From Naegleria gruberi (lineage: Eukaryota), in NCBI GenBank assembly GCA_000004985.1, contig GG738869.1: a stretch of DNA of 64,000 nucleotides. The stretch is one strand, 5' to 3'. This document shows positions 933-55,083 of this stretch, piece after piece. The position numbers were made by a program, and so were the translations under genes. Under the pieces are notes generated by a model, which was not told the origin of the DNA, did no database searches, and saw only the letters and a list, made by a program, of their open reading frames with translations. How positions within the stretch are numbered: position 1 is the stretch's first letter; the number at the start of each line of letters is the position of its first letter.

Positions 933-2183
933 TTATTCCTTATAATTTATAACAGATTCAAGAGCTGGATTCAACTCGATGGCTTTCTTAAAATCGAGTT
1001 GTGCCTTCTCTGTTTCCTGCATGTTTTGATAGACATTACCTCTCAAATGATAGGCACTTGCATGGAGAGGAAGAAGCATTTCCATATGAGGACCAAGTGT
1101 TGGTACAATTTCAATAACTCGAGTGAAATCATCGAGTGCCTTACTATAGTCCTTTGTGAGCGTGAATGCAATTCCTCTATTAAAGTAACCACCTGGGAAA
1201 TTTGGATTCAATTCTATTGCTCTTGTCAAATCAACTATTGCCAAATCATAGTTACTAATCTTACAATAGGCATTTCCTCTATGCATCCAACTCATTGAAA
1301 AATCAGATTTGAGTTCAATAGACTTGGTAAAATCATCAATTGCCTTATCAATTGATTGATATCCAAAATGCAAGTTTCCTCTATTGTAATAACAGTCGAA
1401 TGATGGCTCCAATTCAATACACTTGGTATAGTCGCTCATGGCATTCTCATACTCACCAATGGCACAGTACGAATTTCCTCTATTATAATAAAAATCTGAA
1501 AAATTTGGATCCAAATCAATTGCCTTTGAGAAATCCTTGATTGCCAACTCTTCTTCTTCCATTCTAGTATATAAAAGTCCTCTATTATTGTATGCTGCAT
1601 GGAATGATGGATCCAGCTCAATAGCTCTGGAAAAATCATCCATTGCCTTTGAATTATCAGACATCTCCGAATAGGTAACACCTCTATTGTAATGAAGTTT
1701 ACTCAATACATTAGGTGCAGAAAGGAGTGAAATTGCCTTTGTAAAATCCTCAATAGCAAGATCACCCTGTCTGGTAATTTGATAAATTAATCCTCTCTGT
1801 GAATAGGCATCTCCAAGATTTGGTTCATTCTCAATGACCCTATTGAAATCATCCATTGCCTTTGAATAATCCTTGAAATAATTCATGAAAATCAATCCTC
1901 TCTGAAAGTACAATTCATTCTGAGGTGTTGGATTTTCTCTAATTAATTGATTCAACTCGGCAAACTTTTCCTCACTCTTATCCACTTGAATAATGAGTGG
2001 TGTTTCATCTTGTTGATTTTGTTTAATTTGATGATGAAAATTATGAACAATATTTATCTTTCCGAGTGTTGTTACTAATGATGATATTCCAACCCTCTTG
2101 AAAGAGGACAATTTTCTGGTATCTCCACCAACACTATTTACTATAAACTTTAAGCTAGGATTTGATAGTATTCTTCTAAACAT
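933..2183 (-). CDS. Tetratricopeptide (TPR) repeat protein, 416 aa, single ORF
   Basis: About 10 tandem 34-aa repeats with the pattern AxxDFxKAIELxPxxxxxYxNRGxxY. Convergent with the GDI gene. Confidence 0.7.
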   Translation of the reverse strand: MFRRILSNPSLKFIVNSVGGDTRKLSSFKRVGISSLVTTLGKINIVHNFHHQIKQNQQDETPLIIQVDKSEEKFAELNQLIRENPTPQNELYFQRGLIFMNYFKDYSKAMDDFNRVIENEPNLGDAYSQRGLIYQITRQGDLAIEDFTKAISLLSAPNVLSKLHYNRGVTYSEMSDNSKAMDDFSRAIELDPSFHAAYNNRGLLYTRMEEEELAIKDFSKAIDLDPNFSDFYYNRGNSYCAIGEYENAMSDYTKCIELEPSFDCYYNRGNLHFGYQSIDKAIDDFTKSIELKSDFSMSWMHRGNAYCKISNYDLAIVDLTRAIELNPNFPGGYFNRGIAFTLTKDYSKALDDFTRVIEIVPTLGPHMEMLLPLHASAYHLRGNVYQNMQETEKAQLDFKKAIELNPALESVINYKE

Positions 2184-2578
2184 TTTTTTGAATTGTTTAA
2201 TTGTTTAACTCCGATATTTGCTTTAATTTTCTAATCAATTATGTTATTGAGGAAGTGGTTTAACTTGGGGTTAATCATTACATGATTCCTTATTAATTAC
2301 AATCAGAGGATTCTAAATGAAAATAATCATCATCTTCTATTAATGGCTTGTCAGAGAGAAATCCAAAGCTCTTTTTATGTTCTTCTTCTCTAATGGGCAT
2401 GATGTTTGATAGCAAGAACACAATCATCTTTTGGTTCTTCGCTCCACCATAAACCTTTTCTGTGTTTTCAAAGCACTGAATGACTCAAGTCATCATACGA
2501 TCTTAGCTTGATAATTTAAATACCTGTGTGATGATGTGTTGTTGATCACTTAATCAATTTTTAATATTAGAAAAAAAA

Positions 2579-3151
2579 ATGTTCATCAACAAACGAGTTT
2601 TTATTGCCCTGATGGTGGCTTTCGTATTGGCTTTGAGTTTTGCTTGGGCTAAACCAGAAGATCAGATGGAAGGAGTAACAGAATTGACCGATGCTACCTT
2701 TGAAAGCTTTATCAAATCGAACAAATATGTTGTTGTAGAATTTTATGCTCCGGTAGGTGTTGTTTAATGTACTTTTTGATTTTAAATGTCGATCGTGATG
2801 ATTATAATGATGATTAATGATATGGTGATGATGAATATTCCATATGATAATAATATTATTGATTGGATAATTGTGTTGGAATTATAGTGGTGTGGACATT
2901 GTCAACAATTTGCTAAAAGTTTAGGAAGACTTGGAAAGTTAATTTCTGGATCAAAGAGAGTTGATATTAAGATTGCTAAAGTGGATGGTGACAAGTATGA
3001 ATCATTGGCTAACAAGGTCAACTTGGAAGGTTTCCCAACTCTTTATTTATTTAAGGATGGAAATGTTAAGAAACCAATCACACACGAAGGTTCAATGACA
3101 ACAAAGGGTGTCCTCGATTTTGTCTATGAAAATACCAAGAAAAAGAACTAA
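2579..3151 (+). CDS. Secreted/ER thioredoxin-domain protein (PDI family, CGHC active site). Two exons: 2579..2752 and 2888..3151; intron 2753..2887 with GTAGGT donor and TATAG acceptor.
   Basis: N-terminal signal peptide MFINKRVFIALMVAFVLALSFAWA. Exon 1 ends ...VVVEFYAP and exon 2 begins WCGHCQQFAK.... Splicing restores the thioredoxin active site APWCGHC, and the frame checks (174 + 264 nt). Confidence 0.8.
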
Positions 3152-3335
3152 ATTATTTATTAAAACATTGTAAATTATTATTTATTTAATTGGATGAAAT
3201 CAAATTTATTTAATTACTATAGTATAAGAATCGAATAAATTCAAAGCTTGAACTACATTCTGATTTGGTGAAATACTCTTTTTTAGAAATCAACAAAATA
3301 TTATAAATTAAATATTAAAGTTTTTAAGAAGAAAA

Positions 3336-4562
3336 ATGCAACATTTACAGTTCGTTCCTTCTCCTGAGGAGATTGGCTTTATCAAATCCATTCCTTCGAT
3401 AACATTTTGCAAAATGCACGGATTGGGAAATGATTATATTTACATTAATTGTTGTAATTTATTACATTCATCAGAAGCTAATGATTTCCGAATCTATCTA
3501 AATCATCAACATAATCTAATTGAATATTGTATTCAAAAGTTGTGTCATCGAACATTTGGTATTGGAGCTGATGGTGTAATTTTCATCACGAATCCAACAC
3601 CAGAATTATTGGAGAATGAAACAAATCATCATCAAATAATTCATTGTCAAATGGAAATGTACAATTCCGATGGATCGAGTGGAGAAATGTGTGGAAATGG
3701 ATTGAGATGTGTTGCTCAGTTTGCCTGTGATCGTTTGGTGGAGAGTGGTAAAATTAAAAAACAAACACTTGAGGGAGGACAACTTGGATATAGAATCAAT
3801 GTACAAAGTAATAGAGGAAAGAGATTGTATCAATGTATTTGTTATGAGGATAGGTCTACATTTTCCAAATCTTCACCTCTGATGGTTGAGATTGAGATGG
3901 GAAATTTACAAACAAAAAGTGTTAATTTCTCATTTGAAAATAATTCAAATTCTATTGAATATGTGGAACAGGAGGAGAATTCAATTAGGAAAATCATTTT
4001 CAAACAATATTTGGATTGTGAAATTCCTCTGTATTGTCTTTTGGTACCTAATCCACATGCCATTTGTTGGGTTAATGAAATTTCTTCACAGAATGAGATT
4101 GATAACACAATGAAAGCAGTCGATTCATTCCCACTTCATACAATTGGTCCAATCATTGAAAATTTGAAACAATTATTTCCAAATAGGACCAATGTAGAAT
4201 TCATTGAAACCATTTCAGCTCAGCATATTGAAACAAATGATTCACCTCTCATCAAATCATTAAAATCCAATTGCATTCTCTCTGCCCGTCAACGTACTTG
4301 GGAGAGAGGTAGTGGAGAAACCAATGCATGTGGGACTGGAGCTTTTGCTGTATCTCAAGTTCTCTACTTGAGAAATGCCATCACCAATTCAATTGGCAAT
4401 ATTCCAAATACTGCCACAGTCAGAATATCCCTCAATGGAGGTGATTTATGGTTCAGATATCACAAATCAAATCCAACTTCACTCGATCATATTCAAGTCA
4501 ACATGATTGGTTCTGTCAATTATTCTCACACAGGCTCCTTCAAATTATCAGATTATCAATAA
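3336..4562 (+). CDS. dapF: Diaminopimelate epimerase (DapF)-family protein, 408 aa, intronless, with host-like AT-rich composition
   Basis: All three DapF signature blocks are present: FCKMHGLGNDYIYIN (FxKMHGxGNDF), YNSDGSSGEMCGNGLRCVAQF (NADGSxxExCGNGxRC, Cys73 equivalent) and ERGSGETNACGTGAFAVSQ (ERGAGETxACGxG, Cys217 equivalent). Relative to the ~275-aa bacterial enzymes it has a 25-aa N-terminal extension and insertions. Confidence 0.75.
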   Translation: MQHLQFVPSPEEIGFIKSIPSITFCKMHGLGNDYIYINCCNLLHSSEANDFRIYLNHQHNLIEYCIQKLCHRTFGIGADGVIFITNPTPELLENETNHHQIIHCQMEMYNSDGSSGEMCGNGLRCVAQFACDRLVESGKIKKQTLEGGQLGYRINVQSNRGKRLYQCICYEDRSTFSKSSPLMVEIEMGNLQTKSVNFSFENNSNSIEYVEQEENSIRKIIFKQYLDCEIPLYCLLVPNPHAICWVNEISSQNEIDNTMKAVDSFPLHTIGPIIENLKQLFPNRTNVEFIETISAQHIETNDSPLIKSLKSNCILSARQRTWERGSGETNACGTGAFAVSQVLYLRNAITNSIGNIPNTATVRISLNGGDLWFRYHKSNPTSLDHIQVNMIGSVNYSHTGSFKLSDYQ

Positions 4563-4880
4563 TAAACAACCTTTAAGCTCCTTCCATACAATTCCAAAAA
4601 CACAAAAGAACATTAATGAAATAGCCTGAAACTTTCCATGTTTAATATTTTTCATTTATTTTCTCTTCAATCTTTTGCCAATTCTTTCGAAGTCTCGGAA
4701 AAAGGTGAAGCTTTAGAAAAAAATATCATCACCAAGTTTGCGGAAGCCTTTTTTCTCTCTTGTTGTGTTAGTACCACCTCTTCTCGACTCGTCGTGTTGC
4801 TATTTTTCTCTGATACGCTATAGAATCTTCTTCTTTGGACACCAATTTAAAAACAACTTGGAATATTTGGATAATAGGAA

Positions 4881-7340
4881 ATGAGCAAAAATTCCGAACA
4901 ACAACAACAGCAAGTGGATCCTCTTGCCGATCCTATTGTCGATACAATTACTAATGAACCTGCTACTGATGAAACTGGCTTTATTACTACACCATTTCTT
5001 GGTATGGAATTTCAAAGTATGCCTACTATGGGATCTTTGCAAGATAAGAGTAAGAAAGGAATCAACATTCATGTAGAAAGTGTTGAAGATGCCATTTCCG
5101 AAGTTAATGCATATGAATTGGACTTTTTAGTTATGGATATTTCTATTCATAAACAAACTCATCAACAACAAAAGAAGAATACGCCAAGTCAACCTACACT
5201 TTTGGATTTAAGACAAATTTGCCACAAGCACACAGTTTCTTCTAGACGTTATTTGTTTAGAACAACAGATTGGTCTCACTGTATGGTCGGAAAGGTAGAT
5301 GAATCTGCTTTCCAAGCTGCTTTTGGAATTTACAACAATAACAATAAGAAATTATTATCTTGTGAAAAGCCATACGAAGTTCCTGCAATTGATGAATATC
5401 TTTGCGGACAGCCATCCCCTGTTAAAAAGACAAAACAGAATAATACTCATGCCATTCCATCAACTGCTGGTACTCTTTCACAAGTTCATTTACAAGCTCA
5501 AGCTGCCAAGTTAATCATTCAACAAGAAATTCAATGGGCTTCTCACTTGTGTATTCCTGCTGTTCTTTTCCCAGAACCTCAAGGAAGAGAAATGACCATT
5601 GCTCTTGCTCAATTCATTAACAAGATTCTTCCAAGTATGGGAAGTACTGCTATTTGGGTTCGTTTCAGTGCTCAAAATTATCATTTGTGGAATTTGATGA
5701 GAACCATGTGCCAAAGCCATAGCTTACTTGTTCCAGTTTTGGATGTGAAAAATAGAGATATTGAAGAATTGGCTCAATCATGTAAGCCAACCCAAGTAGA
5801 AGGTGACAAGAAGAAGAAAAAGACAGCAAATACACCTGAAACTGCCCAACATTATCCACATGAAGCCTTTTGGAATCCTTTCGAAAAGCAAACATTCGGA
5901 TGCGAAAATCCACTTGTCACTGCCTTATCTGTATGGATTGCAGAAAATGTGAGAACAATAATTTTGAACTTGGACAATTTTGCTGCTCCACAAAACAATC
6001 AATCACACTTTTTGAATGAGGGATTGGAACAATTTATCAGAAAATCATTCAAATATGATATTCAATTTATTTTCAGTGCTGGAGCAGATGCCTCTCCAAA
6101 TATGAAGATTTACAAGAGATCAATCATGTCATTATTTGAAAATTGCCCAATCTTGTCTAAGGTTGAAGCATTCAGCAAGTCTTTCCGTGACTTTTTACAA
6201 AGACCATTACAACCACTCATTGATAACTTGGAAAGTCAAACTTATGAAGTTTTCGAACGTGATCCAATCAAATATCTTCTCTATGAACAAGCTGCTGAAA
6301 AGGCTCTTGTTGATTTGTATGAAGCTAAGAAGGCCAAACTTGCCAACGACCCAGAAGCCCTCAAGAATATGCGTGTCATTTCCATGGTTTTGGGTGCTGG
6401 TAGAGGTCCAATTGTTAAGGCAGTTTTAAGAGCTGCCAGAACAGTGAATGTTCCAGTGCTGGTTTATGCTGTAGAGAAGAATCCAAATGCTCTCAGTCAT
6501 TTACTCTACTATAGAAAGACTATTTGGAGTACATTTACTCATGTCAATGGTCGTGATAACTTGGATGTTCCAATAGTGGAAGTCATTCAAAAAGATATGC
6601 GTGTGTGGAATCCACCTGAAAAAGCAGATTTATTAGTTTCTGAATTGTTGGGATCTTTTGGTGATAATGAACTGAGTCCAGAATGTTTAGATGGTGCTCA
6701 ACGTCTCTTAAAGGACAATGGAGAAGGTATTTCAATTCCAGCCAAATACACCTCCTATGCAAGCCCATTGTGTAGTTATAAGGTCTGGACTGAGGTTAAG
6801 AACCTTTGTAAATCTACAACCTTTGAACATGCTGCTTTTGAAACTGGTTATGTATGTTTAGTCCATCGTGGTGTTCCACTAGATAAGCCACAAAGATGTT
6901 TCACTTTTGTCCACCCAAATCCTCAAGTCACAGAAGATCTTAAGGAAAAGGAAATACTTCGTGACCATGAAGATGATAGCTCGACTCTTCATGTTCCACT
7001 CATTAATAATGACAGATACGTCTCCCTTAAATTCAAATCACAACAAAATGCTGTTGTCCATGGTTTGATTGGTTACTTTGATTGCCAATTATATAAGGAT
7101 GTTTGGATGAGTATTCTGCCAGATACTTTCTCAACTGGTATGTTCAGTTGGTTCCCAATATTCTTCCCAATTGAAAACCCAGTTGCTGTCAAGAAGGGTG
7201 AAGAAATTGGTGTTCAAATCTGGAGAAATTGTGATATGGACATTGGCAGAAAAGTCTGGTATGAATGGTGTGTCACAACAAATGGCACATGTTCAAAGCT
7301 CCACAATAGTCAAGGCAAACACTATTACATTTCCCTCTAA
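4881..7340 (+). CDS. PRMT5: Protein arginine N-methyltransferase 5 (PRMT5/Skb1/Hsl7 family), 819 aa, single exon
   Basis: SAM-binding motif MVLGAGRGPIV, then LLVSELLGSFGDNELSPECLDGAQ and a C-terminal beta-barrel region. The N-terminal TIM-barrel-like part has a poly-Q at the start. Confidence 0.9.
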   Translation: MSKNSEQQQQQVDPLADPIVDTITNEPATDETGFITTPFLGMEFQSMPTMGSLQDKSKKGINIHVESVEDAISEVNAYELDFLVMDISIHKQTHQQQKKNTPSQPTLLDLRQICHKHTVSSRRYLFRTTDWSHCMVGKVDESAFQAAFGIYNNNNKKLLSCEKPYEVPAIDEYLCGQPSPVKKTKQNNTHAIPSTAGTLSQVHLQAQAAKLIIQQEIQWASHLCIPAVLFPEPQGREMTIALAQFINKILPSMGSTAIWVRFSAQNYHLWNLMRTMCQSHSLLVPVLDVKNRDIEELAQSCKPTQVEGDKKKKKTANTPETAQHYPHEAFWNPFEKQTFGCENPLVTALSVWIAENVRTIILNLDNFAAPQNNQSHFLNEGLEQFIRKSFKYDIQFIFSAGADASPNMKIYKRSIMSLFENCPILSKVEAFSKSFRDFLQRPLQPLIDNLESQTYEVFERDPIKYLLYEQAAEKALVDLYEAKKAKLANDPEALKNMRVISMVLGAGRGPIVKAVLRAARTVNVPVLVYAVEKNPNALSHLLYYRKTIWSTFTHVNGRDNLDVPIVEVIQKDMRVWNPPEKADLLVSELLGSFGDNELSPECLDGAQRLLKDNGEGISIPAKYTSYASPLCSYKVWTEVKNLCKSTTFEHAAFETGYVCLVHRGVPLDKPQRCFTFVHPNPQVTEDLKEKEILRDHEDDSSTLHVPLINNDRYVSLKFKSQQNAVVHGLIGYFDCQLYKDVWMSILPDTFSTGMFSWFPIFFPIENPVAVKKGEEIGVQIWRNCDMDIGRKVWYEWCVTTNGTCSKLHNSQGKHYYISL

Positions 7341-7631: not shown

Positions 7632-8318
7632 ATGAGCGCTGTTGTCGAATATCTTAAAGCCCCAGTGCACGACCTCTTTGCCTGGGCTCGTATTAGTTCT
7701 ATGTGGCCTGTTACTTTTGGTTTGGCTTGTTGTGCTGTTGAAATGATGCACGTCGCCGCTGCTAGATATGACTTGGAACGTTACGGTATCTTCTTTAGAC
7801 CAACACCTCGTCAATCCGATGCCATGATTATTGCTGGTACCTTGACAAACAAAATGGCTCCTGCTCTTCGTAAAGTTTGGGATCAAATGGCTGAACCACG
7901 TTACTCTGTTTCTATGGGTTCTTGTGCCAATGGTGGTGGTTATTATCACTTTTCTTATCACGTTGTTAGAGGTGCCGATCAAATTATACCTGTGGACGTT
8001 TACGTTCCTGGATGGTAAGTAGTTTTTGTTGTTGTTATTAACTTGTTTTCACAGCCCTCCAACCGCTGTATGTATTATTGTTTTATTATTAGCAAAATAT
8101 TAATATTGTTTTTTGGATAATTTGGATATGTTAAATATAATGGAAATATATAGGAAGCTTTATTATATGGTGTTTATATGCTTCAAAAGAAGATTAAGAG
8201 AAATCCATACAGAAAGGAAATTATGGAACAAGATTTTAACCAACCTGGTAAATTATATAGAGCTGAAAAGGAATTGAGCGTTTCTGATAATTTGAAACTT
8301 TTGAAACAACAAGAATAA
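7632..8318 (+). CDS. NDUFS7: NADH:ubiquinone oxidoreductase 20-kDa subunit (NDUFS7/PSST/NuoB). Three exons: 7632..8014, 8055..8067 (13-nt microexon) and 8154..8318.
   Basis: Exon 1 reads ...[16 protein letters not shown]...[10 protein letters not shown]...IPVDVYVPG plus TG. The microexon C CCT CCA ACC GCT completes the invariant CPPTA. Exon 3 reads [17 protein letters not shown].... Donors are GTAAGT and GTATGT; acceptors are CACAG and ATATAG. The frame checks throughout. Confidence 0.85.
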
Positions 8319-8411: not shown

Positions 8412-9452
8412 TTACAAAATGTTAGCTCTGTGTAAATTACACAACAATTGATTATAGTTGAAAAGAGGTCCATATTGCATATCATGCCAATAATTGACTG
8501 CAACCACAACACCTTCCTCATTGTGGTCCTGAGCCACTTGATGAAGCCATAAAGATGGAAGATATAAAGCATCTCCAGGTCCAATCTCCACTTTGAATGG
8601 AGTGGCATGCTTATATCTTGGGTAAACTTGAATGATTTCCTCTCTAGTTTGTTTATCTGGATCAACATCAATCCAAGGGACTTGCGTATCTTCATCTACA
8701 ATCTTCCATTCATTATCTTCAAAATGATAGTGAGCTTCATTATAATTCTTATAAGGCACATTTACAACATCTGTTGGAGGATAAAGTGTAAAGATTTTCT
8801 TTCCAGCCAATACACAATAAATATTCTCATATGGATCCTTATGTAAACTAGAAGTAGATTGACCATCTCCAATCCACAAATTAACAGCATCTGGTAAATT
8901 ATTAAAAGCTCTCACAGCAAATCCCAATTGTTCTGGAACATCTTGCATGAGTTCTTGAAATTCCTTTGTTAAACTTGAATTTTGATGTTGAGCATAGAAG
9001 ATAGTATTCCATGAATTCATTCCATTAAATTCCTCTTCCTCCTTATCTGGTAAATTATTAAATCTCCTCTTATTAGTCATAAATTGCATAAATTGATTAA
9101 ATTTCATTTTCACTTCCATAGGTTTAATAAATTTTCCTTCATGCACAGCATCAGCCTTTCCATTTGGTGTACAAGCCACAGAAATTTCCTTATCGGAAAG
9201 AACTTGTTTCAAATATTCAACATTCCACTTTTCAGAGGCTGGCCATCCTTCCAAAGCATTCCTAAATATCACTGGTTTATTAGCACTAATATAATGATGA
9301 ACAAAATTTAAAACATCATCCTCATCTTCATAAACTGGAAATCCGTAAAGTTCATCAACTTGTCCTTCCTCTCCGTAGGTTTCCTTGGTTTGTTCCGAGA
9401 GGAGGTCTAATTGTTCGTGGAGCAGGGTTTTCAGTGTGTCGTTTGCGCTCAT
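8412..9452 (-). CDS. JMJD7: JmjC-domain protein, JMJD7 ortholog (2OG/Fe(II) hydroxylase/peptidase), 346 aa
   Basis: Collinear match to JMJD7: PVIFRNALEGWPASEKW, ISVACTPNGKADAV, PDAVNLWIGDGQSTSSLHKDPYENIYCVLAGKKIFTLYPP, VPWIDVDP, GDALYLPSLWLHQVAQ, VNYWHDMQYG. Confidence 0.9.
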   Translation of the reverse strand: MSANDTLKTLLHEQLDLLSEQTKETYGEEGQVDELYGFPVYEDEDDVLNFVHHYISANKPVIFRNALEGWPASEKWNVEYLKQVLSDKEISVACTPNGKADAVHEGKFIKPMEVKMKFNQFMQFMTNKRRFNNLPDKEEEEFNGMNSWNTIFYAQHQNSSLTKEFQELMQDVPEQLGFAVRAFNNLPDAVNLWIGDGQSTSSLHKDPYENIYCVLAGKKIFTLYPPTDVVNVPYKNYNEAHYHFEDNEWKIVDEDTQVPWIDVDPDKQTREEIIQVYPRYKHATPFKVEIGPGDALYLPSLWLHQVAQDHNEEGVVVAVNYWHDMQYGPLFNYNQLLCNLHRANIL

Positions 9453-9630: not shown

Positions 9631-11301
9631 TTAAATGAAAGGAAGATCACTTGTTGGAGATTGAGGAGAATTTGGAGAAGTAGTGTTCATATTCAAAGCA
9701 AGTGTTGATTTGAATTGAAAATGAGTTAGAGAAAGAATATCCGATATTTCCTTTTCGAGATTATCCAAAATTTTTGAATGGAGAATGTCCACAGTTTCGT
9801 ATGAGCCTTGTCTATTGTTATAGAGATCGATTTGGTGGATAATCCATTCCATACTACCAAGATAAACAGATTCTGATTGAATGGAATCATGAATTTCAAA
9901 AATGATTTCGTATTTGATTCGTTCTAGATGGGAAAGTTTCTTTTCAAGTTCATTCGAAACTTGCTGAATATAAATGTCTGCTCCTTTAGCCAAAGACTTT
10001 TCCGCTACAAACTCCTTTGTAATTTCATATAATTTGAGCTGACAATCTATTGAATCTTTACAAAATTCTTTAAAATATTGAATTCTTTCCAAAATTGAAA
10101 ATGGAATTCCAACCTTTGCCTTTTTACAAAATGTTTTAAATTCATCTCGCATTCCAATATCAGCCATCGTATCCTTCAATATATTAGTACTCTCAATCCT
10201 AACTTTCTTCTCATTTCGTATCAACTTTCGTCCCAACATTAAATAAACTAATATTCCAACAGGAATAACAATCACACAAGCCAGACACGACAAGACCAAC
10301 ACTGAAATTCCACTCGCTATGGTAAACTCATCAATTCTATTGCACAACAAGTAAATATCCTCCAATATCTCAAAAAACTTTGTTTCGAATAGTTCCATTT
10401 CATATTTAAATGTTCCATTATAATATTTGACATTGTAAACATTAAATTGTTGATAAAATTCATCCAATTTCGTATAATTTGAAGTATAATTACTCAGCTT
10501 ACAAAACAACCCAATCATTTCTGTCCAATTCTGATAAAGTGGCAGAAACACTTCCTCACCATTCGAATTTCCCATAAACGAATGTTCATAACTGTCAGGT
10601 ATTAAGGAAATCATTTTAAAAACCGATTGATTATAATCAAGCAGTGTATAATTAAGCATATCACAAAAATCTGAATAATTAATCGTTTCCAAACTATTAT
10701 TAAGAGCACTCAATTCTAACATGTCTCGTAAATAGACGAAAGAAGATTTAACTGAATATCGACTAATGAGTAGTTCCTTAATGGGAACAAATTCGGCTAT
10801 TCGTGATGGGACAATGATGGCGAGGGCAATGATGAGTAGAAACAAAATATTGATGAACATGGCCATGGTGGCAAGTAATGGAATTAATCCGAAACGTTTC
10901 GAACAACAATTGATTTGTTTTTTTGATAGTGAACGAGCCAAATCATCAACATGATTGGTTTCGTCCCGAATTTCCTCTATACCTGCTGGTAATTGATCTT
11001 CTATCCTTTCATCCTCAAATAGTATCCTCGGTTGACTTTCGAATACATTTTCATTCTCCACAAAAACACTTCCTTCATCATTTTCATAATTATTTGGTGA
11101 TTGAATTGAAGAATAACTTATTGCCCTCTTCAATTCAAAAGTAGACGGCTTGCTATATGATGGTGGATCATTTAAAAGCATTTTTATGATTCGTAAATAA
11201 GTTATTCGAAAGGAAAGAAGTAGAAATAGAGATAAAAACAACATAAAAAAAAGGCATTTCAGAGTACTTACGAGTAGTAACTTGAAACAAGAAAATGCCA
11301 A
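9631..11301 (-). CDS. Two-pass membrane receptor-like protein (TM1, then a ~180-aa N-glycosylation-rich ectodomain, then TM2, then a ~200-aa cytoplasmic region with an RGS-like segment). The true start is probably an internal Met (e.g. MLLNDPP...).
   Basis: Hydrophobic segments FGLIPLLATMAMFINILFLLIIALAIIV and ASGISVLVLSCLACVIVIPVGILVYLML flank a domain with 8 or more NxS/T sites. The cytoplasmic part has FKTFCKKAKVGIPFSILERIQYFKEF, resembling the RGS core (FxxFLxxEFSEENLxFWxAxEEFK). It is a paralog of the adjacent + strand gene. Confidence 0.45.
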   Translation of the reverse strand: MAFSCFKLLLVSTLKCLFFMLFLSLFLLLSFRITYLRIIKMLLNDPPSYSKPSTFELKRAISYSSIQSPNNYENDEGSVFVENENVFESQPRILFEDERIEDQLPAGIEEIRDETNHVDDLARSLSKKQINCCSKRFGLIPLLATMAMFINILFLLIIALAIIVPSRIAEFVPIKELLISRYSVKSSFVYLRDMLELSALNNSLETINYSDFCDMLNYTLLDYNQSVFKMISLIPDSYEHSFMGNSNGEEVFLPLYQNWTEMIGLFCKLSNYTSNYTKLDEFYQQFNVYNVKYYNGTFKYEMELFETKFFEILEDIYLLCNRIDEFTIASGISVLVLSCLACVIVIPVGILVYLMLGRKLIRNEKKVRIESTNILKDTMADIGMRDEFKTFCKKAKVGIPFSILERIQYFKEFCKDSIDCQLKLYEITKEFVAEKSLAKGADIYIQQVSNELEKKLSHLERIKYEIIFEIHDSIQSESVYLGSMEWIIHQIDLYNNRQGSYETVDILHSKILDNLEKEISDILSLTHFQFKSTLALNMNTTSPNSPQSPTSDLPFI

Positions 11302-12602
11302 TCAATGAAATACGTAAAAACGTCAAGGCCAATCAAGAGACTACTTTCACAACCAAGTCTTCATCTCTTGATTCGAATATGCCAACTAGGCGAAAGATTG
11401 TAAAGTATTTGAGACTAATCTTGTTGATAGGATTCATTATCAACTTTTTATCTTTCATTTCAATTGCTATTATTTCAATATTATCTTTTCAAAGTTCTAA
11501 TTTTTCATTATCAACTGCCATATACAAATATGGAAATGCATATTTGGGTTATGATGAAATGGAATTGGCAGAATTTTTAGTATTACTGACAAGAAAGGAG
11601 AAATTCATTCAAAGATATTATCATTCAAAGAATGAATTGAATAGTTCACTTTCGTATGCTTTTCAAATAATTTCGAATGAAAATTCTTCTTGGATTCCAA
11701 CTCACGAATGGTTCCAAATTGAAAATCACGTAATGGAACTAGTCAAGAGTGGAAACTATTCTCAAGCTTACTCAGTTTCAACTTCTCCAGAACACAAACT
11801 AGCAGATCTTCGATTTATCCAATTTTTAGATTCAGTTCTCGCTCAATTATTCCAAATCAGTGAAACAAAAGAAGCAGAATATATGAAATACACAACTATT
11901 GATCTGGTTGTGGTGATTCTCTGTTTAGGAATTGCCATTCCAATTGTTTTATTAATTTTCATTGGAGTTATTAAATTGGATCGAGATTCAAAGAAGAGAT
12001 TGGAGAAGGCAAGGGCAGTTTCGGTTATTCATTCGATTTCTGATCCGTTTCTGAGACCCAAGTTTAGAAAATGTGTTGAGAATGATGAGTTGGTGTGTTT
12101 TGAATTCTTGGAGAATGTTCAATTGTTTAAGGAGAAGAAGAGATCTATTCATTCGACTATTCAGTCGATTCTAGACGAAATGAAAAAAGAAATGATACCT
12201 AATGATGAAGAGGATGATGCTAGTTCATTGAATGGAATTAGCCCACTAACCCTTTCTCCTGATTTATTCTTACAAATCAAGTCAGAAGATGATCAAATTA
12301 AGGCAATTGACATTTACAATCGTTTTCTCAATCCTAAAGAAAATCAGAAACACATCAAATATAAGAATCATGAAAAGATTTTGGAGGAAATTAATCATCA
12401 GAGTAATCAAGACCTGTTGTCCACTGTATTCGATCAGGTACAAATTGAAATTGCTAAAAAGCTCATCAAATCTCATGAATTATTCTCCAAATCTCAATCT
12501 TTCTCCACTCAAGACATTGAAGACCAATTGCTTTCCTATAGATTTGAATATCTTTCAATATTCAAACCTGAAAAACGAAACAGTCTATTCACATCAAAGT
12601 AA
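11295..12602 (+). CDS. Paralogous two-pass membrane receptor-like protein with an RGS-like cytoplasmic segment, 435 aa. Divergently transcribed from the previous gene.
   Basis: Same architecture: TM1 LRLILLIGFIINFLSFISIAIISIL, an ectodomain with NxS/T sites, TM2 LVVVILCLGIAIPIVLLIFIGVI, then FRKCVENDELVCFEFLENVQLFKEKK (RGS-like). Confidence 0.45.
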   Translation: MPINEIRKNVKANQETTFTTKSSSLDSNMPTRRKIVKYLRLILLIGFIINFLSFISIAIISILSFQSSNFSLSTAIYKYGNAYLGYDEMELAEFLVLLTRKEKFIQRYYHSKNELNSSLSYAFQIISNENSSWIPTHEWFQIENHVMELVKSGNYSQAYSVSTSPEHKLADLRFIQFLDSVLAQLFQISETKEAEYMKYTTIDLVVVILCLGIAIPIVLLIFIGVIKLDRDSKKRLEKARAVSVIHSISDPFLRPKFRKCVENDELVCFEFLENVQLFKEKKRSIHSTIQSILDEMKKEMIPNDEEDDASSLNGISPLTLSPDLFLQIKSEDDQIKAIDIYNRFLNPKENQKHIKYKNHEKILEEINHQSNQDLLSTVFDQVQIEIAKKLIKSHELFSKSQSFSTQDIEDQLLSYRFEYLSIFKPEKRNSLFTSK

Positions 12603-15298: not shown

Positions 15299-15521
15299 TA
15301 ATTATCCATCTAATAAGAGCTATGGATAATTTGTATTTCGAAATATCTGCTACTATTTTCCAATTTAAAATTCTGCAAAGGAAAAAGTAAATATTCGGCA
15401 CTAACCAAACTTGGTATTACTAAAATGGAATCATTTCAAATTCGTCCAATATTTCATATAATTCAACAACTCAATAAATACTCAGCACTCCAAACATTCA
15501 AAGTTTTTCATATAAAAAAAG

Positions 15522-16817
15522 TTGAAAATGTCATCTCAAATCCAAAAAAACCTACAAGAAGAATGTCCAAACAAACCAATCAATGCTGCTACTGCTACCT
15601 CTGAGGAGGAGGGCACAGTTTTGAGATTTTATCCTCAGGATATTACCGTTACTCGAAACCAACCTCTCCTCGAAATGATAGAGAAATGTTACGTCCCCCA
15701 AGTCTTTAAAGATGGTCCTCAAGATGCTGAGATGAGTATTGTTGGTGGAAAGATTAAAATGTCTCAGATTGACAAGTTGATTCCACGTACTCCAGGATTT
15801 GATAAGTTACATACCTTCACAGCTGCCAAGTTGACTGCAAATATGTGGCGAGACACTGTTAAGGTGTTGAGAAAAACATTCCCTGACGATAAAAAGTTGA
15901 GTAAGGCAGCTGAATACTGGGATAAGATGCCAAGTGGAACTCTCCAAATTAGTCCATATGGTTTGGAAGACGAAAAGAATGCCTACTATTCACGTGGTAA
16001 TGGTAGTATTGAACTAAAGTTTGGTTATTTCACTGATGACAAAGGAGATACAATTTACACATGTCAATCATCTGACATTGTTGCTCATGAAACTGGACAT
16101 TATGTACTGGATCATTTGCGTCCAGAATTCAATGATTCTAGAAATGTGCAAACTGGTGGCCTTCACGAAGCATTTGGTGATATTTCTGCCTTAAGTTTCG
16201 TATTTGCTGATGATGCCATGGCTAGAGCATTAATTAATTTAACATTTGGTAACCTTCATGCTTCAGCAAACAACTTCGCTGCTAACTTGGCTGAGGAATT
16301 TGGTATTTCATTGGGAATGCCTGGTTATCTCCGTAGTGCTGATGATGATTACAAACTTTCTCAGGGTGAGGAAGAGGTCCACTTCGTATCAGAGGTGTTT
16401 ACTGGCGCTTATTATGATGCCCTTGCAAGTGCTTTTAAGGCAGCTACTCAAGAATTCACTGAATATAATTCAGTCACTTTGTTGCAGGCAGTGAGTGAAT
16501 ATGCTCGTAACCTCCTACTGCATGCCATTGTAACTGTTGGAGGAAAATCACCAGATTTTGTTGATATTGCCAATCGATTGTATGAGATTATTGACCTCCA
16601 TAGTCAGAATGCACCTGCAAAAGTAGCTTATTTGCAAAAGTTAAAGTGGAAAACTTACTTTGAAACTGAGTTTGAGCGTCGTGAGGTCAGTAAACCTGTT
16701 AATCAATTACGCTATGCTGCAAAAAAGAGGGATATGGTAGCTGAACAAGTAAGACAAGTAAGACCAGAGAAGGAAATCTTAACAATGGTTTGTGGTGCAC
16801 ACACTCTTCAAAATTAA
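15522..16817 (+). CDS. Thermolysin-like (gluzincin) zinc metallopeptidase, 431 aa, with no signal peptide
   Basis: HExxH motif VAHETGHYVLD, followed 19 aa later by GGLHEAFGDISAL. This matches the HExxH...GxxNEAxSD layout of the M4/M36-type third zinc ligand. Confidence 0.55.
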   Translation: MKMSSQIQKNLQEECPNKPINAATATSEEEGTVLRFYPQDITVTRNQPLLEMIEKCYVPQVFKDGPQDAEMSIVGGKIKMSQIDKLIPRTPGFDKLHTFTAAKLTANMWRDTVKVLRKTFPDDKKLSKAAEYWDKMPSGTLQISPYGLEDEKNAYYSRGNGSIELKFGYFTDDKGDTIYTCQSSDIVAHETGHYVLDHLRPEFNDSRNVQTGGLHEAFGDISALSFVFADDAMARALINLTFGNLHASANNFAANLAEEFGISLGMPGYLRSADDDYKLSQGEEEVHFVSEVFTGAYYDALASAFKAATQEFTEYNSVTLLQAVSEYARNLLLHAIVTVGGKSPDFVDIANRLYEIIDLHSQNAPAKVAYLQKLKWKTYFETEFERREVSKPVNQLRYAAKKRDMVAEQVRQVRPEKEILTMVCGAHTLQN

Positions 16818-17878
16818 TTATGTATATATATAAACAGCAATTAGTGAGTATTATTGGATGTGCACTTCTAAGATATTCTTCACATCACATTCTCTAATAG
16901 CTGATTGAATATGGCAAAATCCTCCACATCGATCTCTATTGATTAAAACTTTCATCGTCCCATGAGGTGCATATTCTGGATCAAAATCAAAGGCAATTTA
17001 AAATTGGACATTTGTGGCCATTTTCAAATTCACACTAATCAACATATTTCAATGCTTCATTGATTGTAATGAATTCCTAATAAACACCATGAACTGTCCA
17101 CTGTAACTTATATTCATAAAATGGCGCATTTTCAAACAGAGAGATTTCAGTAAACTATTTAAATTTATGCCAGGTTTTGAGATAATGGTGGGCTTAGAAT
17201 TTAACGAAAATGGTGTGCCTTCTTGTTTGCCCTCTTCGATGTGTTTTAAGCTATGGGAGTACACTTCAATTTCCTTTTTGCTTAAAATTTTTATCTCAAA
17301 ACGCGGCATTAATGGGAACAGGTGGAAATAATGAAATGGGATGAATCAGGAATGGTAGAATTAGTGGTTGACTAAATTAGAGAGGGAAATTCTTTGGGTT
17401 TATCTAGTAATTTCCTTAATATGTTCAATGCTATGTTTTACATTTACTTGGACTATTGTTTGAGAAAACAGTGGATTACAGCTTCTGAAGTCAAAACTGG
17501 AGAGGAGTTTTATTTCGAATATGATATTCACAATTATGAGCATATCAACAATTTTCCATCTGCTAGTACTGCACATGATACTTGCATTGACTGACAAAGA
17601 TGGTGAAATTGTTTTTATTAGGTTTTGTTTGAAATGTTTAACCGGAGAAGAAAAGCAGATGAATATGTTGATGAGAACCATATGAAGAAAATTGATAATT
17701 TCCAAAAATTGTTGGATACTTTGCATTGGTGGGGAAAGTAAAGAGCTGATTTTCTGAAATTATACCTAAACAGGACACTTTCAGTCATTCTCCACCCAGA
17801 GCTTGAATCTAGAAAAGATAGAACTAATAAAAAAGAAGAAATAGTTGAAATTTTCAATTTACTTACAATGGAAGTTCA

Positions 17879-19213
17879 GTGTTCAAAGAAATTAAAAAGA
17901 ACAATCTTAAAAAAAAAATGGGCAATCAATACTCACTTCCACCACACACAAAAGAAGATTTGAAACAAATCCCCAAGAACGATTTGCTCAAATTAAAATT
18001 CGATATGACAATTAAACAGAAATTGGCCGAGTCCATGATCGGATCAAACTCTTCATCATCGTCGTCGGTTGTCAATTTAATTTTCGATACGGATATTGGA
18101 AGTGATATTGATGATGCGTTGGCTTTGGTTTCAGTGTTGAATTTACCGAGAGAAGCCGTGAATGTGTTGGGTGTGACAACTGTCTATGGTTATGTTGAAG
18201 TGAGAAGTCAGGTAGCTTCGAGGATTGTTCAAGCATATGCAGAGGATGAATTTGCATCGAGTGGAAGAGTGGTGGATATTCCTGTATTGACTGGATCTCA
18301 CTATTCAATTGATGATCCAATTGTTTTGGATCCATGTTGGCATGCAAATACGGAAGGAATTGGTTTATTCAAAGATGAGGAAATTGAAAAGATGAAACAA
18401 TATCAAAATTGTTATTTGGATAGAAATGAATTAATGAAACAACACTCAAAGAAGGCAGCTGAATTTATTGTACAAAAAGCTAAGGAATTGAATGGAAATT
18501 TGGTGATTGTATCATTGGGTGGATTGACCAATGTTGCAATGGCCTATCAAATGGATAACAATTTGACAAAATTAGTGAAACGAGTTGTTTTTATGGGAGG
18601 TGGAGTAGTTCCAGTTGGAGGTACCATTCCAGATAATTTTGAAAGAGGCGTCGAATATCATTGCCACTCAAATCACAATATTAGACAAGATCAATTTGCT
18701 GCCAATGTAGTTTTTTCAGCTGGATTTGACGTTTATTGTGTTGGACATACTGTTACTCATTCAGTTTGGTTTGAAGGAAAAACAGTTGACTTTTTGAGAA
18801 CACTCTCATTTCACAAAGGACAAAATCCATACGAAAATGATAATATTATAGAATCTTATGATCCACAATATCCTAAAATGGCTCATATTCTTGGTACATT
18901 ATTGGATGTGTGGCTCAAACATCGAAGCGTTGTTTTTAGTAAGACAATCAAGGGAACTTGTCCACATGATGCCTTAACAACCTATGAAGCAATTTTCAAT
19001 CAACAATTTATCAAATACGTACGAGGACACTTTATTGTAAATGAAACTGATGGCAAAGTTTGTTTCATCTATGATCCAGATTATGGTAAGGTCAATGTGG
19101 CCATTGGTTTTCAAAACGATCAAATGCCAGCTCAAATGCTCTCCCTCCTTTCTGAATCTCTATTGAAAGCTATTCCAAAAGATGATTTACATCTCTATGG
19201 ACTCCATTTGTAA
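17879..19213 (+). CDS. Inosine-uridine-preferring nucleoside hydrolase family protein, 444 aa
   Basis: Signature N-terminal aspartate cluster NLIFDTDIGSDIDDALAL (DxDxxxDDxxAL), then GVTTVYGY and the C-terminal HD...T region. Confidence 0.8.
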   Translation: MFKEIKKNNLKKKMGNQYSLPPHTKEDLKQIPKNDLLKLKFDMTIKQKLAESMIGSNSSSSSSVVNLIFDTDIGSDIDDALALVSVLNLPREAVNVLGVTTVYGYVEVRSQVASRIVQAYAEDEFASSGRVVDIPVLTGSHYSIDDPIVLDPCWHANTEGIGLFKDEEIEKMKQYQNCYLDRNELMKQHSKKAAEFIVQKAKELNGNLVIVSLGGLTNVAMAYQMDNNLTKLVKRVVFMGGGVVPVGGTIPDNFERGVEYHCHSNHNIRQDQFAANVVFSAGFDVYCVGHTVTHSVWFEGKTVDFLRTLSFHKGQNPYENDNIIESYDPQYPKMAHILGTLLDVWLKHRSVVFSKTIKGTCPHDALTTYEAIFNQQFIKYVRGHFIVNETDGKVCFIYDPDYGKVNVAIGFQNDQMPAQMLSLLSESLLKAIPKDDLHLYGLHL

Positions 19214-19508: not shown

Positions 19509-21791
19509 ATGCATCAGCAAGTTGGAATAGCAAGTAGCTACCAAACGTCATCCTCATCGACGCCCAGCATTTTGCTAAATACTACTTCATCTTCGGCATC
19601 TTTGAATCATCATCAGCAGCAGCAGCAACAGTATCATTCTCAAGGTGGGGGATATCAACAACAAATCAATATGATGAATAATTATAGTAATAATAATAGT
19701 ACATCATTGGGAACCAATAATAATAATAATTTGGATACTATGAGTGGTGTTAGTTATGAAAGGCTTGGAGGAACGGAGAATAATCCGTATCCTTCGTTTC
19801 CTCTTAATTTGAGAAGAAATCAGAATAATCAAGTAATTGCTCCTTCACCCTCATCTACAACAACAATTAATTCAATCAATAATAATAATAGTAATAATAA
19901 TAATAATAATAATACTAACAAAACAGGATGTTGTGGTGGATCGAATAAGAATAATCAACAAGCAAACACCACCAGTAATAATAACGTTTCTCCCAATAAT
20001 CCACCTCAAGGAATGCACTATTGTGCTTGTAAAAACTCATATCAACCTGGAGCCTCTGATTGTGAGTTCCAACAATTCATTACCAAATTTGCCAACGTTC
20101 CGAATACTACTCCATCACCCAACTCTGGATCGACTTCACCTCCTTCTAGTGTCACACCAGAGGATAACTTATCAATGCACACTTCAACTGTTGAGAAAGC
20201 TCTTCCGAAAGCCAATACATCCTGTTTATTGTGTAAATTAAGACATAGAAAGTGTGACTATAGTCATCCTTCCTGCACACATTGTATGAAAGAAAATAGA
20301 CAGTTTTGTCTCTACATTAGTAATGTAAAGAGAGGACCAAAAAAGCAAAAGGATGATGTGGATAGTATGGACCTGGATACAATCACCAAAGATAATATCG
20401 ACACTATTTACAAGACTATATATCAAAATATTTCTAATATCAAAGCTGATAATGAAGTGGTATCAAAGTTGTCATTCCAATTATTCAGTAAAATTGTTGA
20501 CAAGCTTCTTCCACGTTCGGCAAAAGAAGATATCTATGAATTAATGAGGGTAGCCTTACATCCAACGAATGAGGTTTTTTCTGGTGATATGGATCATTTC
20601 TACAAGTATTTTTACAAGATTGGAGAAAAGGAAATTGCTCTCGTTTCTATTTTGCAAGCCATAGCCCTTCAAAGATTAAATTACAAACAACTGGCAGCTA
20701 GACTCTATGAGAAGGCAAGATCAAAGATGTCTGTCATATTTGATCATGTATCGGATTTTAAACTCATTGCTGTTTATGTATTTGTGGCAATCTACTTGTT
20801 GGGAGATGGTGACAGACCAAGAGCTGAATACTTTCTCAATCATGTTAAATTCTATGTTAAAGAATTTCAACCAACAATGCACGAAGCACAATTTCTACTC
20901 AGAACTGTACTTTTATCAGAATCAATTTTGCAAGATAACTACGACCAACTTCTCAAACACTACGAAAATATTCTCCTCTTCTTTACACCTCAACAACACG
21001 ATCCTGAAAATTTACCTCAATCTGCCATCAATAGTATTTCCAGTTATATTGTAAATTCAAATGAGAAAATGTTCAAACCTGGAAGATGTAGAATTGGAGA
21101 TGCTGATTCTAATGGAGAATTGAAAAGGCAACTGATTCATTTGAGAGAAATTATTGATAAGAGTAATCAGGAATATCCAATTGGTTATCAACATTTATTG
21201 GACTCACTACTTAATTCTAATGATGATATTAACAATTTGTGTATTAATTTCAAACCTGAGAGCTCTGAACCTTTAGAACAGAAAATTGAACAAATTAATA
21301 TGGCCATCGAGAATATAAGAAAACAATACGGAAGCTGGGATTTTCTTGGAAACACTTTCATATCCATGCTATACAGCATTGTAATTTTACACAAGCACAA
21401 ATCATTCAACACTGATGAAATTTCAGTGGATGCTGTCAAATGTGCTGACATGATTACCAAATCAACAGAGTACGATGATTTTTCACTTTCTTCATTCCCT
21501 GCCTCCATTCCTCTCTCAATTGCCTGTAAAATTCACATGAGCTCTATGAGAAATATCCTTCGATCATCCACCCTCATCATTCACGAATACTCAGAACAAT
21601 TGAGAAACTATTTACAAAATGATTGTGATGCTCTCCAAATGCTCACTGCTAAATTCCCCCTTGTTGAGAAGAGATTCTCAACCTTGGTAAAAGATGCTCA
21701 ACAAGCATTAGGAAAATATGCAGAAATGAGAATGACTCAACCTCAAAGATTTGTTTCCCTTGACTCTATTTCCAAACATTTCCACATGTAA
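19509..21791 (+). CDS. Zn(II)2Cys6 (Gal4-type) zinc-cluster transcription factor with a poly-Q/poly-N N-terminus, 760 aa
   Basis: CLLCKLRHRKCDYSHPSCTHCMKENRQFC fits C-x2-C-x6-C-x6-C-x2-C-x7-C. The N-terminus has HHQQQQQQYHSQ and a (AAT)n-encoded poly-Asn tract. Confidence 0.75.
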   Translation: MHQQVGIASSYQTSSSSTPSILLNTTSSSASLNHHQQQQQQYHSQGGGYQQQINMMNNYSNNNSTSLGTNNNNNLDTMSGVSYERLGGTENNPYPSFPLNLRRNQNNQVIAPSPSSTTTINSINNNNSNNNNNNNTNKTGCCGGSNKNNQQANTTSNNNVSPNNPPQGMHYCACKNSYQPGASDCEFQQFITKFANVPNTTPSPNSGSTSPPSSVTPEDNLSMHTSTVEKALPKANTSCLLCKLRHRKCDYSHPSCTHCMKENRQFCLYISNVKRGPKKQKDDVDSMDLDTITKDNIDTIYKTIYQNISNIKADNEVVSKLSFQLFSKIVDKLLPRSAKEDIYELMRVALHPTNEVFSGDMDHFYKYFYKIGEKEIALVSILQAIALQRLNYKQLAARLYEKARSKMSVIFDHVSDFKLIAVYVFVAIYLLGDGDRPRAEYFLNHVKFYVKEFQPTMHEAQFLLRTVLLSESILQDNYDQLLKHYENILLFFTPQQHDPENLPQSAINSISSYIVNSNEKMFKPGRCRIGDADSNGELKRQLIHLREIIDKSNQEYPIGYQHLLDSLLNSNDDINNLCINFKPESSEPLEQKIEQINMAIENIRKQYGSWDFLGNTFISMLYSIVILHKHKSFNTDEISVDAVKCADMITKSTEYDDFSLSSFPASIPLSIACKIHMSSMRNILRSSTLIIHEYSEQLRNYLQNDCDALQMLTAKFPLVEKRFSTLVKDAQQALGKYAEMRMTQPQRFVSLDSISKHFHM
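19878..19916 (+). repeat. (AAT)n microsatellite encoding poly-Asn inside the Zn2Cys6 gene
   Basis: aataataataatagtaataataataataataataat is directly visible. Confidence 0.9.
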
Positions 21792-21856
21792 ATTTCCTTT
21801 GAGTCATATTCTCATAAATGCTCGGAAAGATCTAACGAATAAAACTTTCAGTTACA

Positions 21857-22894: not shown

Positions 22895-22924
22895 GTTTTG
22901 AATACCAATAAAGACGTGTGTAAT

Positions 22925-24088: not shown

Positions 24089-24152
24089 GATTTTACAAAA
24101 TTAGTAGTATATTATTATTACTTTGTTACAAACTCTCTAAAAATACATAAAC

Positions 24153-48030: not shown

Positions 48031-48111
48031 GCAGGGGTTCCCGAGTGGTCAAAGGGGGTAGACTCAAGTTCTACTGCGCAAGCTTCGTGGGTTCAAATCC
48101 CACCTTCTGCA
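48031..48111 (+). tRNA. tRNA-Leu (anticodon CAA), class II with a long variable arm
   Basis: Acceptor stem GCAGGGG/CTTCTGC (two G-U pairs) plus discriminator A. D-region CCCGAGTGGTCAAAGGGGG. Anticodon stem GTAGA/TCTAC with loop CTCAAGT. Long variable arm. T-arm GTGGG-TTCAAAT-CCCAC. Confidence 0.85.
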
Positions 48112-54950: not shown

Positions 54951-55083
54951 ATTTTTTGAACGGCTTACTAATAAAATCCAAATAGTGATAAAAAAATTTC
55001 TAAAAAACAATAGTTCAATTTCTTTTGTAAAATATCAGAAAACTAAATAATTCTCAAAATTATCATAATAAGAGGTCTGGGAT

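Follow-up and report, generated by a model that had tools for sequence, protein, structure and literature searches.

A nuclear gene for diaminopimelate epimerase in Naegleria gruberi and its possible place in the salvage of bacterial diaminopimelate

An intact gene for diaminopimelate (DAP) epimerase (DapF) between eukaryotic genes raises the questions of whether it belongs to the genome in which it was found, where it came from, and what its product might do there. The preliminary description of this locus had spoken of an intact DapF homolog in an "amoeba or fungus." The host, Naegleria gruberi, is a heterolobosean amoeboflagellate and neither an amoebozoan nor a fungus, but the gene was indeed found intact. 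In the window, as we call the whole 64-kb stretch of DNA analyzed, positions 3336..4562 of the plus strand hold an uninterrupted ATG-to-stop open reading frame (ORF) of 408 codons; in-frame stops lie directly 5′ of it, and its start is the first ATG after those stops. The 408-aa protein is 100% identical to N. gruberi XP_002676907.1/EFC44163.1 (NAEGRDRAFT_67790, UniProt D2VFY6), which carries the UniRef name diaminopimelate epimerase; the gene was thus annotated in NCBI and UniProt beforehand. A literature search found no paper explicitly treating DapF in Naegleria or Heterolobosea; Opperdoes 2011, which was outside the coverage of that search, might describe the salvage route considered below. 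The gene and its neighbors are as follows:

933..2183, minus strand: TPR protein
2579..3150, plus strand: thioredoxin (PDI-like), secreted or ER, with a signal peptide and a GT..AG intron at about 2755-2887 (sequence read directly)
3336..4562, plus strand: DapF (diaminopimelate epimerase) gene, single exon, 408 aa (ORF, identical database entry, TIGR00652, PF01678, AlphaFold2/Foldseek)
4881..7340, plus strand: PRMT5 arginine methyltransferase (Pfam PF05185, PF17286, PF17285)
8412..9452, minus strand: JmjC/cupin protein

Genes for an SNF2 helicase, ALIX/BRO1, an HMG-box protein, and eEF1A lie farther away in the window.

Family assignment and active site

The protein scored 148.4 bits against the NCBIfam equivalog model for DapF, TIGR00652 (curated cut-off, 114.65), and 115.8 bits against Pfam PF01678, DAP_epimerase (cut-off, 34.7), the latter in two stretches that represent the two homologous domains. 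All 16 of the best PDB sequence matches were diaminopimelate epimerases, including those of B. anthracis (2OTN; 4.5e-22, 82 bits) and Arabidopsis (3EJX; 4e-20, 75 bits); the cyanobacterial enzyme 9MRO scored 72 bits. The O-ureidoserine racemase DcsC was next, at 2.9e-08, and trailed DapF by 14 orders of magnitude. An AlphaFold2 model of the protein (pLDDT, 86.6; pTM, 0.88) was confident in the core, and a Foldseek search of the PDB with it gave DapF for the top 26 chains (E values of 6e-23 to 1e-16), with the homolog DcsC interleaved at rank 7; the target-normalized TM scores of the matches to DapF structures were 0.67 to 0.80. Proline racemase and PhzF came in some 10 orders of magnitude below DapF, with E values of about 1e-12 to 1e-13, and an identity as either of these was rejected. 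The preliminary description had proposed PF01678 and a sequence search as checks and had named a best match to PhzF or proline racemase, with misaligned catalytic residues, as the finding that would speak against DapF; the searches came out for DapF, and the catalytic residues align.

The DapF motifs are GLGNDY (29-34), NSDGSSGEMCGNGLRC (with Cys119), NPH (239-241), RTNVEF (284-289), and WERGSGETNACGTGA (with Cys332), so that the signature blocks and both catalytic cysteines claimed from the first reading are borne out, with C119-G-N-G and C332-G-T-G aligned to their bacterial counterparts. Within the gene, three stretches can be assigned from the alignments:

3336..3398, plus strand: N-terminal extension of about 21 aa (MQHLQFVPSPEEIGFIKSIPS) (from comparison with the heterolobosean orthologs and the E. 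coli enzyme)
3690..3698, plus strand: codons for Cys119-Gly120-Asn121, first catalytic cysteine motif (E. coli C73-G74-N75); invariant in the 11- and 76-sequence alignments
4329..4337, plus strand: codons for Cys332-Gly333-Thr334, second catalytic cysteine motif (E. coli C217-G218-S219); invariant or nearly invariant in the alignments

Alignment with E. coli DapF gave the following equivalents of the DAP-binding residues:

E. coli N11: N. gruberi N32
E. coli N64: N. gruberi N110
E. coli N157: N. gruberi N239
E. coli N190: N. gruberi N286
E. coli E208-R209: N. gruberi E323-R324

The roles given to these residues are taken from structures of the H. influenzae enzyme with aziridino-DAP (2GKE and 2GKJ). 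The DAP-binding residues (N11, N64, N157, N190, E208, and R209 in E. coli), among them those that hold the distal L-center, are conserved throughout in N. gruberi, and the catalytic and DAP-binding positions are invariant or nearly so in the 76-sequence alignment. E. coli Q44 is replaced by Gly, as in most nongammaproteobacterial DapFs. By family, predicted fold, and active-site residues, the product of 3336..4562 is to be regarded as a true DapF, with a similarity well above any chance level.

Compared with the bacterial and plant enzymes (EC 5.1.1.7; e.g., E. coli 4IJZ, H. influenzae 2GKE, 2OTN, and 3EJX), the Naegleria protein has the same two-domain pseudosymmetric fold in its model, the same two catalytic cysteines at helix N termini, and the same DAP-binding Asn, Glu, and Arg residues. 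It differs in being about 134 aa longer and only about 30 to 33% identical (BLASTP local alignment), in having Pro for the Gly that precedes the NPH motif, and in being encoded by a nuclear gene outside any operon and without a plastid transit peptide. The Gly-to-Pro exchange is a property of the heterolobosean clade, which has VPNPH where MGNPH is almost universal. The extra 134 residues relative to E. coli DapF are made up of the 21-aa N-terminal tail and 10 insertions of 5 to 19 aa; the internal insertions of at least 5 aa (n = 10) together come to about 111 aa, and the low-pLDDT segments of the model fall on them. Thus, the insertions noted earlier were found, but the N-terminal extension, put at 25 aa before, is about 21 aa long relative to E. 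coli DapF. This extension contains a single Lys, two Glu, and no Arg, lacks a hydrophobic core, and is for this reason unlike either a mitochondrial presequence or a signal peptide; it has a pLDDT of 65 to 70 and differs among the orthologs. Judged by composition and nonconservation only, it is probably not a targeting signal, and we rejected a targeting-peptide reading of the N terminus on these two grounds. A plant or algal plastid DapF, of cyanobacterial origin and inherited vertically since the plastid, was rejected as well; 3EJX and 9MRO score no higher than the B. anthracis enzyme, and the short N-terminal tail, which is acidic and not basic and varies among the orthologs, is not transit peptide-like.

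Genomic residency and origin

The gene lies on a 747-kb contig with eukaryotic genes on both sides, and its composition (GC, 0.341; GC3, 0.259) is indistinguishable from that of neighboring genes. The correlation of its relative synonymous codon usage (RSCU) with that of three neighbors was 0.83, equal to the value among those neighbors themselves. The flanks are as first described, with an intron-containing thioredoxin gene upstream and PRMT5 downstream. The intron of the thioredoxin gene sits just 5′ of the WCGHC motif, and the N. fowleri ortholog of this gene has a Pfam Thioredoxin match. Both neighbors are synteny anchors and are outside the function of DapF. The order thioredoxin-DapF-PRMT5 is kept in N. 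fowleri and N. lovaniensis, and the DapF-PRMT5 adjacency is also present on a metagenomic Naegleria-like contig; the ortholog of Willaertia magna lies between ALIX and ATG7, also in eukaryotic surroundings. Linkage of dapF with lysA or dapL was seen in none of N. gruberi, N. fowleri, N. lovaniensis, Willaertia, and the metagenomic contig.

The dapF orthologs of N. fowleri and N. lovaniensis are interrupted by a canonical GTAAGT..TAG intron of 113 and 96 nt, respectively, at one common site (RQRT|WERGSGET), at which the N. gruberi gene has no intron. Their comparison gave a dN/dS of 0.26, and comparisons with N. gruberi gave 0.13 to 0.21 at a dS near saturation; 104 alignment columns are invariant among the five heterolobosean orthologs. 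The DapF gene is a resident nuclear gene under purifying selection. Codon usage, synteny, and the intron of the sister species agree with the earlier statement that the composition is host-like and the gene no contamination. As judged from the orthologs, it has been inherited vertically since at least the common ancestor of Naegleria and Willaertia.

Relatives were sought among 5.8 billion proteins with both the single sequence and a profile, and the 120 best were listed. Among the matches listed, five belong to the subfamily, namely, those of N. gruberi, N. lovaniensis, N. fowleri, the metagenomic contig, and W. magna. Beyond these five heterolobosean members, the score falls from 491 to 173 bits, and the proteins that follow are bacterial DapFs of 270 to 320 aa from mixed phyla with about 30 to 33% identity. 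The best bacterial matches came from Planctomycetota, Lachnospiraceae, Leptospira, Brachyspira, Fibrobacteria, and others, with similar scores, and the best match outside the heteroloboseans comes from a contig of typical bacterial character, where an aminotransferase gene adjoins it. In a neighbor-joining (NJ) distance tree, the five heterolobosean DapFs formed a clade (100/100 bootstrap) on a long branch; its sister was one lone sequence and not a meaningful bacterial group. There was no kinetoplastid DapF among the 120 best relatives, and the PDB sequence search did not single out plant or cyanobacterial DapF as especially close. Since the orthologs listed come from Naegleria and Willaertia alone and are followed by bacterial proteins with about 30 to 33% identity, an old transfer from a bacterium to a heterolobosean is the likely and simplest origin, with the direction and the age being those that we infer from this distribution. 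The ancient horizontal gene transfer (HGT) suggested at first sight is thus upheld as the most economical explanation, given the narrow distribution, the bacterial relatives that follow, and the 100/100 clade. The naming of a bacterial donor was given up, with the best matches scattered over phyla and a single sequence as the NJ sister.

Pathway context and competing explanations

If DapF is active in Naegleria, which other enzymes of DAP metabolism are there? One orthogroup named "Diaminopimelate decarboxylase" (OG0004922) is present as a single copy in all 14 of 14 Naegleria genomes, including that of N. gruberi (PMC9928731 Table S7; annotation table). The same table, whose metabolic genes are taken from Fritz-Laylin 2010, Opperdoes 2011, and Herman 2021, also has an anhydro-N-acetylmuramic acid kinase, lysozymes, and an alanine racemase (PMC9928731 Table S7). 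Enzymes of dihydrodipicolinate or tetrahydrodipicolinate metabolism were not present in the searchable, incomplete supplements for the Naegleria pangenome and the Willaertia annotation, and a scan of 24 large ORFs in the 64-kb window turned up no further DAP pathway gene. The supplements for Acrasis kona contained no DAP term, the table of Butenko 2020 does not cover Naegleria, and Richter 2018 yielded nothing informative on this genus.

DapF had been called unusual for eukaryotes outside plants and algae; this was overstated, since DapF and/or LysA are documented in kinetoplastids and choanoflagellates (PMC7052976, PMC4810370, PMC3846528, PMC4046809, PMC7971027). The kinetoplastids concerned (Crithidia fasciculata, Leptomonas pyrrhocoris, Herpetomonas, Neobodo designis, and the prokinetoplastinan PhF-6) are, like Naegleria, nonphotosynthetic, bacterium-associated members of the Discoba. 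They likewise have a bacterial-type DapF and a reported LysA, and upstream DAP enzymes are not known from them; in Leptomonas, Crithidia, Neobodo, and PhF-6, the pair was read as a means of making lysine from bacterial cell wall DAP (PMC7052976 supplement; PMC4810370; PMC3846528). The DapF of Herpetomonas groups with Bacteroidetes with 99% bootstrap support (PMC3846528), whereas the heterolobosean clade is without an identifiable donor, and the heterolobosean acquisition appears, from the sequences compared, to be independent of the kinetoplastid one. The choanoflagellates Monosiga brevicollis and Salpingoeca rosetta are also phagotrophic heterotrophs with a dapF of prokaryotic or algal origin, and their DAP genes are HGT derived (PMC4046809; PMC7971027). 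There, however, the whole DAP branch, for de novo lysine synthesis, is reported, whereas the support for Naegleria covers the last two steps only. The arrangement proposed for Naegleria is a close parallel to kinetoplastid salvage with DapF and LysA and a loose parallel to the DAP genes of choanoflagellates.

Because DapF plus the reported LysA, with no upstream step in the lists searched, matches the kinetoplastid pattern, we favor, as reasonably probable, a two-step terminal salvage in which these two enzymes would convert bacterial DAP to lysine in Naegleria. The use of DAP released from peptidoglycan had already been put forward in the preliminary description, and the reported LysA and the kinetoplastid precedent make it the favored reading. 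DAP would be supplied by digested bacteria, both as peptidoglycan stem peptides and from free pools. DapF, predicted to be catalytically competent, would interconvert LL-DAP and meso-DAP by a PLP-independent, two-cysteine mechanism, and LysA, as known from the annotation table, would convert meso-DAP to L-lysine and CO2; the two would presumably act together in the cytosol. Since LysA uses meso-DAP directly, it is LL-DAP that DapF would specifically open, and its particular gain may lie in LL-DAP that comes from intermediates of the bacterial pathway and from the LL-DAP-type peptidoglycan of many actinobacteria in soil. What DapF is worth to the amoeba under selection would hinge on these putative LL-DAP sources, because most Gram-negative prey give meso-DAP.

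Three other explanations have to be weighed against salvage. DapF could catalyze the second-to-last reaction of a full DAP pathway for de novo lysine synthesis that makes Naegleria a lysine prototroph like plants, oomycetes, and Monosiga. Such a role would be in line with the complete, HGT-built DAP pathways of choanoflagellates (PMC4046809), with an aspartate kinase in the Willaertia annotation list, and with the LysA of Naegleria itself (annotation table, PMC9928731). It is opposed by the lack of dipicolinate enzymes in the searchable, incomplete Naegleria and Willaertia supplements and by the 0 of 24 scanned large ORFs of the window that fall into the pathway. Moreover, the minimal defined medium that Fulton and colleagues are said to have devised in 1984 for N. 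gruberi NEG-M, the sequenced strain, reportedly contains lysine as a requirement and would therefore imply that there is no de novo synthesis of lysine. We regard a complete pathway as unlikely. At the other end, the gene might be a bacterial contaminant, an assembly artifact, or a decaying relic of HGT, as one could suspect from its nearest nonheterolobosean relatives, which are bacterial. Against this stand the 747-kb contig and the eukaryotic neighbors, the host-like codon usage of the gene, the synteny kept in three other assemblies, the spliceosomal intron in the sister species, the intact ORF with invariant catalytic residues, and a dN/dS of 0.13 to 0.26. Contamination or a pseudogene is effectively refuted by codon usage, synteny, intron, and dN/dS, and we give this whole group of explanations hardly any credence.

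The protein could also be a DapF fold racemase neofunctionalized for another substrate, for example, another D-amino acid of the bacterial wall, as in DcsC or the chlamydial DapF/glutamate racemase. The strong divergence (about 30 to 33% identity to any bacterial DapF, on a long branch), the 10 insertions and the lineage-specific VPNPH motif, the appearance of DcsC at rank 7 of the Foldseek search, and the presence of alanine and serine racemases in Naegleria would all be compatible with such a change. DcsC (7VDY), proline racemase, and PhzF do share their fold with Naegleria DapF, as well as an acid/base chemistry with two cysteines (or a related one), but the latter keeps the distal-site residues for DAP, and its similarity to these proteins is much weaker than that to DapF. 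Indeed, the residues for both ends of DAP are retained, including N110, N239, N286, and R324 of the distal site, the score exceeds the cut-off of the DapF equivalog TIGR00652, and in the sequence search DcsC lies 14 orders of magnitude behind DapF. With NF038284, which models the bifunctional DapF/glutamate racemase of chlamydiae, the protein reached 46 bits with a cut-off of 350 bits, and an identity as that enzyme was rejected. A changed substrate is unlikely given the intact DAP site, and we judge neofunctionalization as a whole to be quite improbable.

Meaning for Naegleria and other bacterivorous protists

Salvage of bacterial DAP by DapF and LysA would leave the current understanding unchanged, in that the annotation of the gene was in place beforehand and the mechanism is clearly precedented. 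A more far-reaching version, which we regard as doubtful and put forward only tentatively, is that Naegleria and Willaertia gained a bacterial DapF in an event separate from those in kinetoplastids and choanoflagellates, remodeled it heavily with loop insertions and a Pro in the NPH motif, and use it to harvest LL-DAP specifically from actinobacterial prey. If this were true, the lysine nutrition of these amoebae in soil would be tied to the cell wall chemotype of their prey, and DapF would be a metabolic marker or target in N. fowleri that is absent from humans. Because humans lack DapF whereas N. fowleri has kept it, its use as a target or marker in this species is possible, but it is probably nonessential.

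DapF bears on the contrast between the reported lysine need of Naegleria in axenic culture and its good growth on bacteria. With this gene, the Heterolobosea would join the phagotrophic protist lineages with terminal enzymes of the DAP pathway captured from bacteria, and Naegleria DapF supports the view that bacterivores have repeatedly gained genes for recycling metabolites of their prey, such as DAP, MurNAc, and D-amino acids.

Gene order around DapF

In Willaertia magna, the DapF gene is directly adjoined by an ALIX gene. A BRO1/ALIX gene is also encoded in the window, at a distance of about 36 kb from DapF:

Window 40831-43197, + strand: BRO1/ALIX gene of N. gruberi
W. magna locus (L002) 2527-4875: ALIX gene

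The linkage of ALIX and DapF may be a leftover of an older gene order that has since been split in Naegleria. Two further features lie downstream of PRMT5, the neighbor of DapF:

Window 7632-8018, + strand: ORF with a CCAVEM motif, resembling the complex I subunit NuoB/PSST (NDUFS7)
N. fowleri locus (L001) 15357-17420, − strand: amino acid transporter gene (Pfam Aa_trans)

Judged by its CCAVEM motif, the ORF looks like a candidate for NuoB/PSST, the C terminus of which is probably carried by a further exon, and the corresponding place downstream of PRMT5 is occupied in both N. fowleri and N. lovaniensis by genes matching Pfam Oxidored_q6. The transporter gene of N. fowleri directly follows PRMT5 and is two genes away from DapF; neither N. 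gruberi nor N. lovaniensis has a counterpart at this place.

Remaining contents of the window

Two genes of the window have no connection to the DapF finding:

17879-19213, + strand: inosine-uridine-preferring nucleoside hydrolase (purine/pyrimidine salvage)
30637-31497, + strand: AlkB-like 2OG-Fe(II) oxygenase

Eleven ORFs of 318 to 760 amino acids (within 9631-12602, 15522-16817, 19509-25112, 28856-30496, 33349-34953, 38302-39897, and 43317-44444) had no Pfam match at an E value of ≤1e-5. Most likely, these represent either proteins specific to the Naegleria lineage or exon-containing ORFs, and part of them may be spurious. A 346-amino-acid ORF (53970-55010, − strand) is antisense to the eEF1A gene (53619-54950, + strand) and almost certainly a shadow ORF rather than a real gene. 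The sole tRNA gene across the 64 kb encodes tRNA-Leu(CAA) (48031-48111, + strand).

VPNPH motif and intron of DapF

All five heterolobosean DapF proteins share the motif VPNPH (residues 237 to 241 in N. gruberi), in which a Pro adjoins the DAP-binding Asn; at least 90% of the 76 sequences in the alignment carry Gly at this position (MGNPH). Within the genus, two DapF genes are interrupted by an intron:

N. fowleri locus (L001) 11204-11316: 113 nt, canonical GTAAGT..TAG
N. lovaniensis locus (L007), gene offset 1131-1227: 96 nt, canonical GTAAGT..TAG

The intron site is identical in both species and lies within the conserved motif RQRT|WERGSGET, but N. gruberi DapF has no intron at the corresponding site (window positions 4296 to 4300, approximately). 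This distribution implies gain or loss of an intron inside the genus, in a gene that is probably HGT-derived.
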